Shown here piece by piece: positions 1,934-10,942 of a DNA stretch of 10,942 nucleotides. Source of the stretch: a virus (lineage: Duplodnaviria > Heunggongvirae > Uroviricota > Caudoviricetes); the IMG/VR virus record IMGVR_UViG_2778261459_000006, one strand, 5' to 3'. Under the pieces are notes generated by a model. It worked only from the letters and a program-made list of their open reading frames with translations. It had not been told where the DNA came from and ran no database searches. Position numbers and translations under genes: made by a program. How positions within the stretch are numbered: the stretch's first letter is position 1; each line of letters begins with the position of its first letter.

Positions 1934-1942
1934 TGTGGATAA
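1934..1942 (-). promoter_or_regulatory. DnaA box, perfect TTATCCACA consensus
   Basis: The + strand reads TGTGGATAA, the reverse complement of TTATCCACA. It lies 12 bp upstream of the iteron array. Confidence 0.6.
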
Positions 1943-1953
1943 CTCAAGATGAA

Positions 1954-2084
1954 CCATCAGTTTTGTACCCATATAAAAATCGAACCATCAGTTTTGTACC
2001 CATATACCATCAGTTTTGTACCCATATAACCATCTTTGAACCATCAGTTTTGTACCCATATACCATCAGTTTTGTACCCATATG
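1954..2084. repeat. Iteron array: five direct copies of the 22-bp unit CCATCAGTTTTGTACCCATATA; candidate plasmid-type replication origin
   Basis: Exact copies at 1954-1975, 1985-2006, 2007-2028 and 2041-2062; the copy at 2063-2084 ends in G. A truncated copy (CCATCTTTG) lies at 2030-2038. Flanked by a DnaA box upstream and an AT-rich tract downstream. Confidence 0.9.
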
Positions 2085-2200: not shown

Positions 2201-2525
2201 ACCTTCGGAAAATCATCCGGGTATTGCTAGCTTGCTATTGGCCTGGCAGTGGGCCTACGGCTGGGAACTGGAGAACATGAAACGACGTAAGGCACGGAGC
2301 GCCCACCATAGGCAGACACATAAACATCTGAGAGCGCGCCTTCTATCGCGCTACGCGCTCAATAAAAACCAACGACACCGCCATCCTGAAAGACCAATGG
2401 TTTTATCTCGTATACAGACCAGACATGAAACAGCAGGCTGAAGTGAACACTCAAGCAAGTTTATCCCGCCGCAGACTACCGCAAACTATCATGACCGTGC
2501 AGAATTCGAACTGAATGCCCCCTAG

Positions 2526-2635
2526 AACGCGATGAACACACATACCCGCTACGATTGCATACCTTAAAATCTCACCTCACCACAGAGCGATTGAGACGCC
2601 TTAAAATTGATGCGATTTCGCTAAATTTTTTCACT
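2526..2635. repeat. Long imperfect direct repeat, copy A (about 110 bp)
   Basis: Aligns with 2836-2946; shared blocks AACGCGATNAACACACATA and TTAAAATNGATGCGATTTC..TAAATTTTTTCACT. Confidence 0.85.
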
Positions 2636-2674
2636 TGATGCAGAGCTGTATGCGTGAAGGACAGTTGCGTCCGC

Positions 2675-2735
2675 AACTTTCTTGTTCAAAACCCCAGCCA
2701 TCAAGCGTTGAGCCGAAACTTTCTTGTTCAAAACC
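2675..2735. repeat. Two perfect 19-bp direct repeats, AACTTTCTTGTTCAAAACC, 42 bp apart
   Basis: Copies at 2675-2693 and 2717-2735, lying between the two long direct repeats. Confidence 0.85.
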
Positions 2736-2835
2736 TGGCAAGCCTCACAACCTCCAACGGAGGAAGCTGGGTTAATCAGCTTGATTCTGAGCCGATTGCC
2801 AGCCGGACTACTGACCAGATACTGCCAGGCCATTC

Positions 2836-2946
2836 AACGCGATTAACACACATAAGCGCCACACTTACTTACCTGAAAACTTCACAGCGTCACAGCGCGT
2901 TTTAGACACGTTAAAATCGATGCGATTTCATTAAATTTTTTTCACT
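2836..2946. repeat. Long imperfect direct repeat, copy B (about 111 bp)
   Basis: Aligns with 2526-2635, 310 bp downstream of copy A; the 3' end contains the small palindrome AATCGATGCGATT. Confidence 0.85.
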
Positions 2947-3072
2947 CGCCTGAATGGTGGCAATCAGGACTGATTGCAACATTGCCCCGCCTCGATACTG
3001 AGCGCATAATAAATACATACATTAAGCGGAAACGTCATTAACAGATTTGGAAAAAACAATGGGTTAAACATC

Positions 3073-3693
3073 ATGCGCATATCAAAGCAGCAACGCCAAA
3101 TCCTCGACTATCTGGCAGAAAACGAATCAATCACAGCACGCCAGGCGGCAGATCTCGTTTATGGCGGCAACGTTACCCGCGTACAGGTCGATGCAGCCCG
3201 CCGTTCACTGATGGCGCTGGTCAGCAATGGGCTAATCATGAAACAAGGCCGCGCTTTCGTAGCTGAAAGACATATCAATCACGCTTATAGCCAGGACGTT
3301 GAAGAGTTGCGCCGTCAGATCCTTTGGGTATTCAGCAAAGAGGGGCAGGACTATCTCATTTCTGAGCGTCCAAATTACGCCGCCAAAGAGTTAACAGTAA
3401 GCGGATTGTCGTGCGCACTGGATTATCTTGTCGGTGAAGGTTGCGTTACTTACAAGCAGCTATGGCACGCCCTGAACACGCTTGTAGAAGATGGTTTACT
3501 CATTGCCACGCGTGAGAATATCGAATACTGGATAATGCCGCGTTCAGGTCGCCGCAATCATGCGCGGTATATTTCAGGCAACAAATACAGAACGCCTGAC
3601 TTTAATCCGACACAGGAAGATCGGGACCGTGCCGAAATGATGTGCAGGGAACGGGAGAAAAGATTCATGGACAAGTTGTTTTCGATGCGGTGA
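3073..3693 (+). CDS. 206-aa protein with two tandem winged-helix-like domains; candidate DNA-binding regulator or Rep-like protein
   Basis: ATG at 3073, stop TGA at 3691-3693, then a terminator. Segments QRQILDYLAENESITARQAADLV...LVSNGLIMKQGR and LSCALDYLVGEGCVTYKQLWHALNTLVEDGLLIA each look like a winged helix. Confidence 0.7.
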   Translation: MRISKQQRQILDYLAENESITARQAADLVYGGNVTRVQVDAARRSLMALVSNGLIMKQGRAFVAERHINHAYSQDVEELRRQILWVFSKEGQDYLISERPNYAAKELTVSGLSCALDYLVGEGCVTYKQLWHALNTLVEDGLLIATRENIEYWIMPRSGRRNHARYISGNKYRTPDFNPTQEDRDRAEMMCREREKRFMDKLFSMR

Positions 3694-3699
3694 ACACAA

Positions 3700-3722
3700 G
3701 CGGGCGCAATGCCCGTTTTTCT
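3700..3722 (+). terminator. Rho-independent terminator after the 206-aa gene
   Basis: Stem CGGGC (3701-3705) / GCCCG (3711-3715), loop GCAAT, then TTTTT. Confidence 0.7.
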
Positions 3723-3861
3723 TATCTCATTCCACGCCAGACGAACCAATTTAATCACACCTGAGCAAATGCATAGCCAGAACTTAAGGCCGTCAGAATG
3801 CGTTATATTGCGTTTAAACAGCATCAATTTTTAATTGCTTTTTGATGCGTGAATCGCAGGC

Positions 3862-3890
3862 AAAAAAAATCCCGCGAGTAGCGGCGGGAA
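3862..3890 (-). terminator. Candidate Rho-independent terminator on the minus strand
   Basis: On the minus strand a hairpin (TCCCGC / GCGGGA, 8-nt loop) is followed by a T8 run (complement of the A8 at 3862-3869). No minus-strand ORF is evident, so whatever it terminates would be non-coding or antisense. Confidence 0.45.
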
Positions 3891-4000
3891 ATAGAGACAT
3901 ATCGTTGTAGTTATTAATAGATCACATTTTGAGGCTGAGGATTTGCCTCACTAATATTATCGCGCCGTTACCTTTTAGTCGCAATTGATTGTTTGAAAGA

Positions 4001-4213: not shown

Positions 4214-4393
4214 ATGAAATCCATTACCCTGAAAGAAGTCTGCAATATTGCAGGCGTTACCCCTGAGACGTATCGGCGCTGGTTAAAAGAAAACTTGCCC
4301 GGTATCCCGTTACCATATACCCCGAAAGGGAAACATCTTCGTTTTTATGAGGACGAAGTGGTCGCCTGGATTAAAGGCCAGCGTGAGGGATAA
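4214..4393 (+). CDS. AlpA/Xis-family small HTH protein, 59 aa; absent from the ORF track
   Basis: AGGAG 8 nt upstream of ATG 4214. Translation is MKSITLKEVCNIAGVTPETYRRWLKENLPGIPLPYTPKGKHLRFYEDEVVAWIKGQREG, a paralog-like pattern of the 557..841 protein (LKEVC / MKDVC ... V-W ... W). Confidence 0.7.
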   Translation: MKSITLKEVCNIAGVTPETYRRWLKENLPGIPLPYTPKGKHLRFYEDEVVAWIKGQREG

Positions 4394-6324: not shown

Positions 6325-6375
6325 GTTAGCGAGGTGTTAGCGAACGATAGCGGGTAGTTAGCGAACGATAACGGG
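6325..6375. repeat. Tandem direct repeats of GTTAGCGA; two extended 19-bp copies, GTTAGCGAACGATA(G/A)CGGG, at 21-bp period
   Basis: Copies at 6325-6332, 6336-6354 and 6357-6375, intergenic, immediately upstream of the tail module. Confidence 0.8.
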
Positions 6376-6743: not shown

Positions 6744-7184
6744 ATGCCGATGAGACACCAGGCTGTCATTGAGCAGATCAAGCGGCAGCTAAGGGAAGAA
6801 ATCAAAGAGATTAGCAAGGACGCGGCGACAGCCGCATATGAGATCGCTATCACTGCCGAAGGCTATGCGGTAGCAGATACACCGAGAGACACGGGCACAC
6901 TTATAAACGGCTATTACATCAATATTGACGAAAATCCTGATGGTGCGCACGCCACTTTAGGTAATACGGAACGCTATGCGTATTGGGTTCATGAAATGCC
7001 GGGGATACTGAAAGGTCAACCGCGCGAACATTTCGGGAAGACAAGGGAAGGCGTTGCCTTTGGTGGCGGTACTGAAAAGGGTTGCTATTGGGATCCTGAT
7101 GCAAGGCCCAAATTCCTTGAGCTTGCGCTCGATGAGCATTACGACGAGTTTATGGATATAGCACGCAAATATTTAAAGCGATGA
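6744..7184 (+). CDS. HK97 gp10-like protein (tail completion / head-tail joining family), about 146 aa
   Basis: Motifs PRDTGTL, YAYWVHE and ARPKFLELAL fit the HK97 gp10-like pattern as I recall it. The ORF-track start at 6723 is a TTG; the ATG at 6744 follows a GAAGGGGG RBS. Confidence 0.6.
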   Translation: MPMRHQAVIEQIKRQLREEIKEISKDAATAAYEIAITAEGYAVADTPRDTGTLINGYYINIDENPDGAHATLGNTERYAYWVHEMPGILKGQPREHFGKTREGVAFGGGTEKGCYWDPDARPKFLELALDEHYDEFMDIARKYLKR

Positions 7185-7193
7185 GGTGAGATC

Positions 7194-9374
7194 ATGGGTG
7201 AACAGGTCGGAAGCCTTCAGATAGATATTGACCTGAAGACAAAAAATTTATTGGTAAGCCAAAACCAGGCTGAAAACGCGCTTGATAATATTGGCAATAA
7301 AATCAGCGGTGTGGAACGCAAAACAAAGACCTTTAACACGCAGTTAACTAAAACATCTGCCGCAGTCAAAAGCAGCCTTTCCCCGGCAATTCGCAACGCA
7401 TCGTTTCAGATCGCGGATTTAGCTACCCAATTGCAGATGGGCGGTAATGCTCTGGCGGCATTTGCCGTTCAGGGCGCACAGTTATTAGCTGGCTTTGGCA
7501 CGATGGGCGCGGTAGCTGGCGCGGTGCTGGCTATAGCTGGCGCTATGGGTGGAAGCCTGGCACAAGGCGCTGATAGTGCAGCCGGATCGGTTGAGTACCT
7601 GGACAAGGCGATCACCAAACTGAACGAGGTCATAGCTGTAAATGAGCAGGGCGTGACGGTGATGACTGATAGTTACGCCAATCTTTCTAAGGTTAACGCT
7701 GAAGTAGCGAAACAGATGCGGAACATGGCTGAAATTCAGGCAATTGCAGCACTGCGTGACCTGAAAGAACAGGCAAGCCAGGCACAGGGGGAAATGTCAT
7801 CATTCTGGCGTAGCTTGCAGGGCGGTAAAGCTGACGCAGCAGCAGCAGCACAGGCACTTGATGACCTGGGAATCACGACCAACGACTATAAAGAAGCGAT
7901 CGCCACACTTAACGCCAATCAGCCGGATACACAGGCGCAGATGGCGACGCTGGCTAAATCCGTGATGTATGTTGGCGAAGAATACGATCTGACCAATCAG
8001 CAAGCCTACGAATTCATCCGGGCGCTGAATAAGGCCGCGACAACGAAAACACCGGAAGCAATGCAGGAGCTATCTGGCTTCATGCAGGTATTGCTACAGG
8101 ACACAGAAAACGGTAACGAGGCATTCAGGGAACTGGCTATCAAATTCGTTGATGCACAAACCAAAGGCGCAATGCTGGAAGACCAACTAAACCGACTGAA
8201 AGGCGCTATCAGTGACGCAGCCACAGAAGCCAGAAACGCCAATTTTACCACTATGCTCAACACCGTCGCCGCACGCCTGGCAGCCATTGAGCAAGGTTGG
8301 GAGGCAGGTGTCAGGATGCAGATGAAAGCCCAGGGCTACACTGAAGAGCAGATCGATGAATATGTGAACATGGAAACGGCGTACAGGGATGCAAAAGCCG
8401 CTTTGGACGAGAAGAACAAGGCCGACCGTGAAGCAATTGCGCTATCCAAACGCCAGGCCGCAGAAGCCGCCCGCAAGGCAAAACAGGAAGAAGCTGAAGC
8501 ACAACGCAAGGCCAAACAGTTAGCGGCGCAGAAAGAACAGGCCGGACGCTTTACGCAGCAGGTGATGACGGAATATCAAACGACCGTGGATCCGGCAACA
8601 GGCCAGGCGTTGAACCCTGCCGCACAAGTGGAAATGCAGGAGCAGCAGAAGAAAACGGCATTAGATAAATACAGGCAGTTGGGTGTTTTGGGTGAGCAGG
8701 AGTATCAGAACACGCTAACAGCCATCCAGAAAACTGCATCAATGCGCCGCCAGCAAATCATCAAAGACGAGGCTGACACGTTATTCAACAATCAGCAGCA
8801 GTTGATCGGCACATTTGGCGATTTCTTCGGTGAACTGTCTGGAGTCATAGCAGACGGCGCGGGTGAGCAAAATGCGGCATATCAAGCGCTATTTGCTGTG
8901 CAGAAGGGGTTTGTATTGGCGTCGGCAGCTTTAAGCCTTCAAAAAGCGCTGGCAGAGGCAAACGCCTTACCTTTCCCGGCTAACCTTCCGGCCTATGCGC
9001 AAGCGATGTCAGCAGGTACGCAGATCATTTCAGCTATTCGTGGAATAGCTTTCGGTGGCGGACGCTACAACGGCGGCGCGGTTGGTGCTGGCAACCTGTA
9101 CCGCGTGGGTGAACACGGTAAGCCTGAGATATTCAAGGCGAACAATGGCAGCCAGTACATGATCCCAGGTGATAACGGTCGCGTGATAAGTAATCGTGAC
9201 ATTGGCGGCGGTGGCGGCGTAACAATCAACAGCCCGATCACCATTAACACTACGAATGGCTTCAGTGATGAAGACTCAAGGCGTCTTGAGGAAGCGATGA
9301 AGCGCGTAGCTATGGGCGTTTGCAGGCAGGAGTCAACCAGACCGGGAGGAATGTTAGCCCCGCGCCGCCGTTAA
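7194..9374 (+). CDS. Phage tail tape measure protein, lambda gpH-like, 726 aa
   Basis: N-terminus MGEQVGSLQIDIDLK, then a Gly/Ala-rich hydrophobic segment (…AAFAVQGAQLLAGFGTMGAVAGAVLAIAGAMGG…), a K/A/E/Q-rich helical region and a glycine-rich C-terminus with GNLYRVGEHGKPEIF. This resembles lambda-H-family proteins by eye. Confidence 0.8.
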   Translation: MGEQVGSLQIDIDLKTKNLLVSQNQAENALDNIGNKISGVERKTKTFNTQLTKTSAAVKSSLSPAIRNASFQIADLATQLQMGGNALAAFAVQGAQLLAGFGTMGAVAGAVLAIAGAMGGSLAQGADSAAGSVEYLDKAITKLNEVIAVNEQGVTVMTDSYANLSKVNAEVAKQMRNMAEIQAIAALRDLKEQASQAQGEMSSFWRSLQGGKADAAAAAQALDDLGITTNDYKEAIATLNANQPDTQAQMATLAKSVMYVGEEYDLTNQQAYEFIRALNKAATTKTPEAMQELSGFMQVLLQDTENGNEAFRELAIKFVDAQTKGAMLEDQLNRLKGAISDAATEARNANFTTMLNTVAARLAAIEQGWEAGVRMQMKAQGYTEEQIDEYVNMETAYRDAKAALDEKNKADREAIALSKRQAAEAARKAKQEEAEAQRKAKQLAAQKEQAGRFTQQVMTEYQTTVDPATGQALNPAAQVEMQEQQKKTALDKYRQLGVLGEQEYQNTLTAIQKTASMRRQQIIKDEADTLFNNQQQLIGTFGDFFGELSGVIADGAGEQNAAYQALFAVQKGFVLASAALSLQKALAEANALPFPANLPAYAQAMSAGTQIISAIRGIAFGGGRYNGGAVGAGNLYRVGEHGKPEIFKANNGSQYMIPGDNGRVISNRDIGGGGGVTINSPITINTTNGFSDEDSRRLEEAMKRVAMGVCRQESTRPGGMLAPRRR

Positions 9375-10517: not shown

Positions 10518-10942
10518 ATGTATCAGCCAATGACTTTACCGGATCTGCTATTTGCCGCCGCCGACCGCGCGGGCTATGTCAACAGTAGCGGCAAACTGAA
10601 ACGCAAGGGGTTAGCTGATGCTCTCGGTATCGGTGAGCAGGCGCTTAACAGCTACATGAAAGGTAGCCGGGATGTTAGCACAGAACAACTAAATAACATG
10701 CTGACATTGCTTGGCGTGTACGGCATCGCACCATTCAAGGGCAATCAATGGATGGCGCTGGACGTGGATTATAAAGCGCGTAGCGACGAGATTGTCAGTA
10801 ACAAGATGATTGCGCTGGAACGCGATAACCAGCAAAAGGCACAGCAGATCGCAGCACTGAAAGCTGAGATTGATATGTTGAAAAACCAGTTAAGCAACAA
10901 AATTGATATTGTAGACAAACCGGTTAATCAACAAATCGAGAC
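10518..10942 (+). CDS. 5' part of the junction-spanning XRE-type HTH regulator (continues at 1..408)
   Basis: ATG at 10518; the N-terminus has an HTH pattern (GLADALGIGEQALNSYMKGSRDVSTEQL) followed by a coiled-coil-like segment. The frame runs off the window end and is in phase with 1..408. Confidence 0.7.
   Translation, partial: MYQPMTLPDLLFAAADRAGYVNSSGKLKRKGLADALGIGEQALNSYMKGSRDVSTEQLNNMLTLLGVYGIAPFKGNQWMALDVDYKARSDEIVSNKMIALERDNQQKAQQIAALKAEIDMLKNQLSNKIDIVDKPVNQQIE
10866..10942. repeat. Terminal 77-nt exact duplicate of nt 1-77; circular-contig overlap
   Basis: Direct comparison shows 77 of 77 identical, ending exactly at the window edge. Confidence 0.85.

Follow-up and report, generated by a model that had tools for sequence, protein, structure and literature searches.

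The locus examined here raises two questions: what a non-coding module of about 110 nt does at the edge of a variable region, and why one element holds two copies of it when related genomes hold one. The DNA analyzed, called the window below, is a stretch of 10,942 nt. The original prediction described in it two imperfect 110-bp direct repeats that bracket a pair of perfect 19-bp direct repeats, and both levels of repetition were recovered in our analysis. A repeat search of the window returned the long repeat at 2526-2631 and 2836-2941 (106 nt, 78% identity, start-to-start distance of 310), and gapped alignment by MAFFT and by blastn against the window extended it to 2526-2635 and 2836-2946 (111 columns, 78.4% identity, one gap; E=3.9e-21). 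The left edge is sharp at AACGCGAT and the right edge lies at TAAATTTTTT; in the MAFFT alignment the second copy starts exactly at the first base of the unit. Between the two copies, perfect 19-nt repeats occupy 2675-2693 and 2717-2735, 42 nt apart, and form the core of a longer inner repeat (2671-2693 and 2713-2735) of 23 nt with one mismatch. By our own arithmetic, the chance expectation of a perfect 19-mer pair in 10.9 kb is about 2e-4. The two long copies are referred to as units A and B:

2526-2635, plus strand: unit A, the first copy of a family-conserved non-coding module of ~110 nt; closest ortholog in locus L004 (88%)
2836-2946, plus strand: unit B, the second copy, at the head of the 206-aa gene cassette; 100% identical to the unit of ET881 (locus L002)

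The surrounding tract had been described as poor in open reading frames, with only short frames that lack ATG starts and ribosome-binding sites. The absence of a ribosome-binding site holds, and the absence of an ATG start does not, as an ATG-initiated frame of 70 aa exists on the minus strand at 2621-2833. This frame is not a credible gene, since it has no Shine-Dalgarno sequence and its ortholog in plasmid pRHB34-C15_2 meets a stop at codon 16. The tract at 2277-3000 is also C- and A-rich on the plus strand, with a GC skew of about -0.2 to -0.25 and an AT skew of up to +0.3, opposite to the flanking genes, and it folds worse than shuffled sequences. A C-rich, unstructured transcript of this tract would resemble a Rho loading region.

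Bases 1-77 of the window are identical to bases 10866-10942, which makes the contig, NNVN01000081.1 of assembly GCA_002485715.1, a circle of 10,865 bp. Its gene order is a RepA-like gene, oriV, about 1 kb without genes, a gene for a 206-aa protein, an HTH_17 gene, and an HNH gene with small ORFs, followed by an HK97-gp10-like gene, a 726-aa tape-measure-like gene, and a serine recombinase gene. Neither an integrase nor a small terminase was found among the ORFs compared with Pfam, PHROGs, and NCBIfam. The features of this backbone to which the argument returns are as follows:

831-1841: RepA-like gene
1934-2083, plus strand: oriV, with a DnaA box (TGTGGATAA) and five 22-bp iterons (1951-2083) whose sequence is unlike that of the unit
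3073-3693, plus strand: 206-aa gene, with a weak winged-helix match; cargo of module 2 (see below)
4214-4393: Xis/AlpA-type HTH_17 gene; a second HTH_17 protein is encoded at 557-841
6744-7184: HK97-gp10-like gene (tail component)
7194-9374: 726-aa tape-measure-like gene (PHROG 1538, E=3e-100)

The tape-measure-like gene includes 164 nt at 84% identity to phage mEp013. The 206-aa gene begins 127 nt downstream of unit B, and its product has a weak match to a PHROG of the moron category. Across the assembly collection, 932 blocks index the identical protein, and the 8 contexts listed for it are all chromosomal islands with one unit each; in several genomes PGAP lengthens the gene upstream as a "frameshifted" pseudogene. 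Two other repeats were noticed elsewhere in the window. A 77-nt direct repeat (1-77 and 94-170, 69% identity) covers the start of a 132-aa ORF (10-408) and the sequence upstream of it; this ORF has no family match. A tandem 21-nt repeat, TAGCGAGGTGTTAGCGAACGA, occurs in two copies (86%) at 6327-6368, in the gap before an 87-aa ORF, and the equivalent place in L002, before the small-terminase-like gene, holds three 18-nt repeats of the type CCTTAGCGA. The repeat at 6327-6368 may be a regulatory or packaging site. A search for related loci with the 231-aa protein found nothing in viral contigs.

The distribution of the unit places the window among a family of chromosomal elements. The unit is present in 179-188 of 5,426 complete Escherichia coli genomes, exactly once per genome and on the chromosome every time, and the non-coding tract is matched in part by about 190-230 of the 5,426, again always chromosomally. 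The annotated chromosomal relatives are islands between eutB and eutA, i.e., at the CPZ-55 site. These islands carry, in order, intZ, a Rep-like protein (yffL or a protein of another type) accompanied by iterons of its own, a gene-free stretch of 1.0 to 1.5 kb, an AlpA-like HTH gene, HNH, and small ORFs, and they continue either in a small-terminase-like gene (PF20901, E=2e-13) with a 495-aa gene or in the 726-aa gene. The eut-site relatives look like PICI-type satellites and the window like an autonomous plasmid form of them. The exchange of the pair that includes the 726-aa gene for the pair of PF20901 and 495-aa genes suggests swappable modules for interaction with a helper phage.

One related plasmid was found, pRHB34-C15_2 (CP057168), which lacks the unit core and has other sequence in its place. 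The closest plasmid-like relative (L107, OQVL01001664.1) shares RepA, iterons, and the left block (defined below) with the window at about 83%; its unit is single and is directly followed by low-GC, foreign-looking genes and a truncated 206-aa gene. This metagenome assembly is probably chimeric, and because of this appearance nothing but its unit was used. In E. coli K-12 MG1655, CPZ-55 (L109, 2560898-2561368) keeps yffL and four 23-bp iterons, but the non-coding tract conserved in the other islands is gone, as are the unit and the small-RNA candidate described below, so that K-12 transcriptome data are uninformative on either the unit or the small-RNA candidate. The non-coding region of the window has no match in 50,697 phage records, so that mimicry of a helper cos site by this region lacks support. 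In the literature on CPZ-55, on intZ/yffL, and on satellites with a tape-measure protein, we found no description of the 1-kb tract.

In all relatives the unit forms a border, with a conserved left block on one side and variable cargo on the other. The left block (...AATTCGAA.GGAATG..) precedes the unit, and a conserved right block closes what we call the slot. The cargo between the unit and the right block is of at least five types, 230-950 nt long; most are non-coding mosaics of small hairpins, and some hold the 206-aa gene. The slot of the window contains two modules in tandem, each headed by its own unit, and the parts other than the units are the following:

2277-2525, plus strand: left conserved non-coding block, which precedes the unit in every relative; C- and A-rich
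2636-2745, plus strand: module 1, unique part, with a terminator-like hairpin (2663-2678) followed by TTTCTTGTT, and the 19-nt repeats
2746-2835, plus strand: block C, the end of a short non-coding cargo; 92% identical to pRHB34-C15_2 2869-2959
3698-3718, plus strand: strong intrinsic terminator closing the 206-aa cassette
3729-3866, plus strand: right conserved non-coding block, which starts with ATTCCACGCCAGACGAA and closes the slot in all relatives

The unique part of module 1 (2636-2745) had no match in the 5,426 E. coli genomes, plasmids, viral contigs, or fetched loci, and block C is partly present in the cargo of L113. The 206-aa cassette is present or absent among otherwise collinear relatives, being absent in L003, L087, L112, and L113. 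The 19-nt repeat is unique to the window record, with one chance match in viral contigs and none in the loci. The first of its two copies overlaps the terminator-like hairpin at the 3′ arm and the tail, and a comparable pair of perfect 23-nt repeats, 43 nt apart, occurs in the cargo of L113, where each copy follows a small hairpin. Short hairpin-plus-tail duplications thus seem typical of the slot. Decayed second units were sought in the cargo of relatives, where local alignment scores stayed within those of shuffled sequences.

How the double arrangement arose is indicated by the kinship of the two copies. Units A and B, at 78%, are the most distant pair in the identity matrix of the family. 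Unit B is 100% identical to the single unit of ET881 (L002), and unit B together with its gene is 96-100% identical to the ET881 sequence, where it stands directly after the left block; unit A is 88% identical to the unit of L004. The L004 unit is A-like over its first two thirds and then runs on like the downstream flank of unit B, which is the hybrid expected from recombination between the two heads. Since the heads are different alleles, recombination between diverged elements, and not a recent duplication, would have built the arrangement, which suggests a mosaic formed by recombination, in which each of the two cargo modules has a head of its own. Recombination between unit A and unit B would in turn delete module 1 and restore the common one-unit layout. 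The original prediction had itself named a recent tandem duplication with no binding or transcription among the findings that would undo it. The direct orientation of the copies and their spacing of only 310 bp would agree with a functionless duplication or an assembly artefact; however, each copy has its nearest kin in another element (100% and 88%), not in its partner (78%), and the sequence between the units is partly orthologous to the cargo of other elements. An assembly artefact is ruled out by the 78% identity of the units, and this explanation as a whole retains almost no credibility.

With regard to function, we give about an even chance to the reading that the unit is a conserved intergenic module, likely a sigma-70 promoter facing the slot, and that its double copy in the window is a recombinational mosaic. 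The sites on which this reading is built are given here:

2579-2607, plus strand: predicted promoter of unit A, ACCACA (2579-2584), 17-nt spacer, TAAAAT (2602-2607)
2889-2917, plus strand: predicted promoter of unit B, GTCACA, 17-nt spacer, TAAAAT (-10 from 2912); 9/12 in the scan
2603-2619, plus strand: near-invariant core AAAATYGATGCGATTTC, with the dyad AAATYG-ATG-CGATTT over the -10 and the predicted start; second copy at 2913-2929
2982-3010, plus strand: proximal promoter-like site of the 206-aa gene, TTGCCC, 17-nt spacer, CATAAT; conserved in L002 and L004

Duplicated promoter or RNA units had been suggested for this tract, and it is the promoter part of that suggestion that agrees with the data: in each copy a promoter-like -35/17-nt/-10 arrangement is conserved and points rightward, while a structured RNA found no support (see below). 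The predicted start of unit B lies near 2924. The unit A site is orthologous to that of unit B, with a predicted start near 2614, and its match of 8/12 falls under the scan threshold. Among 11 BLAST-retrieved sequences, the -35 occurs as GTCACA, GCCACA, or ACCACA, with CACAG never changing, and the -10 as TAAAAT, TAGAAT, TAGAGT, or TATAAT, with T1, A2, and T6 invariant. The argument from the -10 is restricted to these 11 because several other sequences were retrieved with a pattern that contains the -10. The spacer is constant at 17 nt in all orthologs and variable in sequence, and only one larger deletion occurs, of 15 nt in L112, on the upstream side of the -35. Hardly any variation is seen in the 20 nt that follow the -10 (YGATGCGATTYCATTAA), and they form the dyad AAATYG-ATG-CGATTT, for which a role as an operator is plausible. 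The -35 matches are weak (4/6 for GTCACA in copy B and 3/6 for ACCACA in copy A), the match of the family to a promoter reaches only 8-10/12, and promoter-like matches in the region are not above shuffles (5 found versus 5.3 expected). Nothing comparable to the promoter-like arrangement of the plus strand is evident on the opposite strand of the unit.

Several observations limit what a promoter would explain. Conservation also covers about 75 nt on the upstream side of the -35, as well as the left block of 250 nt, for which a promoter alone does not account. The second promoter-like site, at 2982-3010, is nearer the gene, so that unit B is not needed for expression of the 206-aa protein. Plasmid maintenance, at the least, does not require the module, as the unit core is replaced in pRHB34-C15_2. 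The 3′ end of the unit was flagged as a terminator in L113, a reading that was rejected since the 5′ arm varies without compensation and the 3′ arm is invariant. Similar sequences occur elsewhere in the window: a weak inverted copy of the unit core (AAAATTGATGC, 3 mismatches) lies on the minus strand of the right block at 3815-3831, and TYGATGCG occurs 5 times against 1.3 expected, 4 of these on the plus strand between 2607 and 3849.

Under the promoter reading, it is as DNA that the unit would act: a sigma-70 promoter, with control sequences upstream and at the start site, would fire rightward into whatever fills the slot. Unit A would yield a short transcript, of ~75 nt from 2614 to 2688, ending at the hairpin 2663-2678 and its T-rich tail, and unit B would read into the 206-aa gene, which has its terminator at 3698-3718. 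In the plasmid form, RepA, iterons, and the serine recombinase stand in place of the integrase.

Action at the level of RNA or protein was weighed against the same alignments. Each unit could encode a structured RNA, either a cis-regulatory leader or a small RNA, that has been duplicated; folding predicts a short hairpin rich in A and U (AAAUYGaugCGAUUU), which is conserved and shows one compensatory change, and the terminator-like hairpin of module 1 lies ~50 nt downstream of the predicted start. The consensus fold nevertheless reaches only about -5 kcal/mol, with 1-2 compensatory pairs and almost no covariation. The unit does not fold better than shuffles on either strand (z = -1.3, +0.25, -0.9, and +0.4), nor does the left block plus unit (z = +1.2), and Rfam searches of the window and of 7 relatives returned nothing at E<=1. 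These values make a structured RNA very unlikely. Module 1 and block C, folded on both strands, showed no significant structure either.

The left block plus unit could also be the 3′ part of a protein gene, with the window copies as pseudogene fragments. The frame in question ends at the TAA inside CATTAA, within the unit, and is open for 133-160 codons in L087 (1192-1674), L112 (2297-2764), and L113 (2295-2696). However, variable columns are distributed 63/71/68 by codon position across the family, with no third-position excess, and two open versions differ at 15/14/16 by codon position. Indels of 1 nt are frequent, in-frame stops are found in most members, including both window copies, the candidate ATG lacks a Shine-Dalgarno sequence, and long open frames are more probable on a strand this poor in T and G. 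The sequence is non-coding on this evidence, and a protein gene is highly improbable. The open frames in L087, L112, and L113 are a trap for gene callers.

The main rival to the promoter reading, and one compatible with it, takes the unit for a boundary or recognition sequence that does not act as a promoter, and the two copies for scars of cassette acquisition. The unit could serve as a homology anchor for cargo swaps or as a region bound by a factor of the element or of the helper phage, such as the Xis/AlpA-like HTH_17 protein. The transition from conserved to variable sequence coincides exactly with the unit, the second copy starts at the very first base of the unit, and conservation extends far upstream of any promoter. 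The non-coding sequence is also better kept than most of the genes: between the window and E. coli ATCC 8739 (L003), the non-coding blocks are 80-89% identical (82-89% for 2277-2640 and 3729-3970), versus 25-50% for most syntenic proteins (25-48% for HNH and the 87-aa, 180-aa, and 95-aa proteins), and only the tape-measure-like protein reaches 86%. The excess of TYGATGCG (5 versus 1.3) and the weak inverted core copy at 3815-3831 would likewise suit a recognition sequence. Yet no recombinase-type core or dyad occurs at both ends of the cassettes, the unit is kept although the recombinases differ (tyrosine integrase or serine recombinase), and invariant T1, A2, and T6 with a fixed spacer make a specifically promoter-like pattern. 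We regard a boundary role of this kind, in either version, as possible though not probable. The presence of the unit in relatives without the 206-aa gene (L003, L087, L112, and L113) means that it is not the private operator of that protein.

A broader proposal, which we hold to be rather doubtful, is that the C/A-rich tract of ~0.5-1 kb (left block, unit, and right block), which is better conserved than most of the satellite proteins, would be an undescribed functional element of a little-studied E. coli satellite family, in which the unit would be a portable expression/recombination adaptor; or else the tract may be where a signal of the helper phage is sensed. Were the unit such an adaptor, it would define cassette boundaries, and cargo would be gained, or lost by unit-unit recombination. 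A cassette-like slot would have its cargo breakpoints clustered at AACGCGAT and TAAATTTT.

Reiterated protein-binding sites, in the form of a partition centromere, a second origin, or an operator array, had been put forward as well; as sites for plasmid maintenance, they could also form an incompatibility array. The repeats are direct, adjoin oriV in an ORF-poor tract, and contain a small dyad, as such sites might. Against this, there are two copies only, and in the window plasmid only, while the relatives have one copy and, as chromosomal islands, do not depend on partition. No ParA/ParB-type match appeared among the ORFs compared with Pfam, PHROGs, and NCBIfam, the 22-bp iteron family (1951-2083) has no member in 2526-2946, the unit accompanies at least four unrelated Rep types, and the complete related plasmid pRHB34-C15_2 does without the unit core. 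Centromere and origin models are already largely refuted by this distribution, and a maintenance role must be considered very improbable.

To the right of the slot, a candidate small RNA on the minus strand is well supported:

3862-3950, minus strand: candidate small RNA of ~89 nt, read from 3950 to 3862, with a TTGCGA-17-GATAAT promoter at 3984-3956 whose -10 is conserved

The sequence of its 5′ hairpin varies between relatives and always pairs, and is followed by a conserved single-stranded AACUACAACGAU and by a terminator hairpin with U8, the stem of which includes one compensatory change of a C-G to an A-U pair. The candidate folds at z=-2.95 and has no Rfam match. Transcripts that run rightward out of the slot would converge on it and be antisense to it.

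Collectively, about 3.5% of complete E. coli genomes carry this unannotated non-coding module, which stands at the entrance to the variable slot of CPZ-55/PICI-like satellites, and the window shows this slot holding two modules at once. If the promoter reading, to which we return here, is correct, it would show where the accessory genes are expressed from, and it would offer a simple route for the gain and loss of cargo. As far as its sequence suggests, the unit is an uncharacterized regulatory module of ordinary appearance in a mosaic mobile element; the result is of modest practical importance and leaves current concepts unchallenged.

Among known systems, integron gene-cassette arrays resemble the window in layout: in a mobile element, modules that are each marked by a copy of a conserved sequence stand in tandem at a variable slot. 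In contrast to integrons, the window has no IntI-type integrase and no attC-like imperfect palindrome; its conserved unit is placed 5′ and resembles a promoter, and the array consists of two modules in one record only, all other records having one. Phage morons are self-contained promoter-gene-terminator insertions, and module 2 resembles them in having predicted promoters (2889-2917 and 2982-3010), one gene, and a terminator (3698-3718), and in being present or absent among collinear relatives. It differs from a moron in that its upstream part copies a backbone module and is not foreign sequence.

The gene content of PICIs comprises an integrase, an AlpA-type regulator, a rep-ori region, a packaging gene, and a specific att site. 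Relatives of the window match this description with an integrase, an AlpA-type HTH_17 gene, a replication protein with an iteron origin, a small-terminase-like protein, and an att site. The window itself has the AlpA-type HTH and rep-ori and lacks the integrase and small terminase, with the HK97-gp10-like and 726-aa tape-measure-like proteins instead. PICIs of Gram-negative bacteria are described in PMC6092414 and PMC10085698. Another close known element is CPZ-55 of K-12 (intZ, yffL-yffS); chromosomal relatives of the window sit at the same eutB/eutA site. In these relatives, intZ, yffL, and 23-bp iterons precede the non-coding tract common to the window, and the Xis/AlpA-like HTH gene, HNH, and small ORFs that come after it are syntenic with the window. 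The K-12 copy differs in having lost the tract and the unit, and the window differs in being an autonomous circle, with RepA, other iterons, and a serine recombinase where the islands have their integrase. The window documents a plasmid form of the CPZ-55/PICI-like satellite family.
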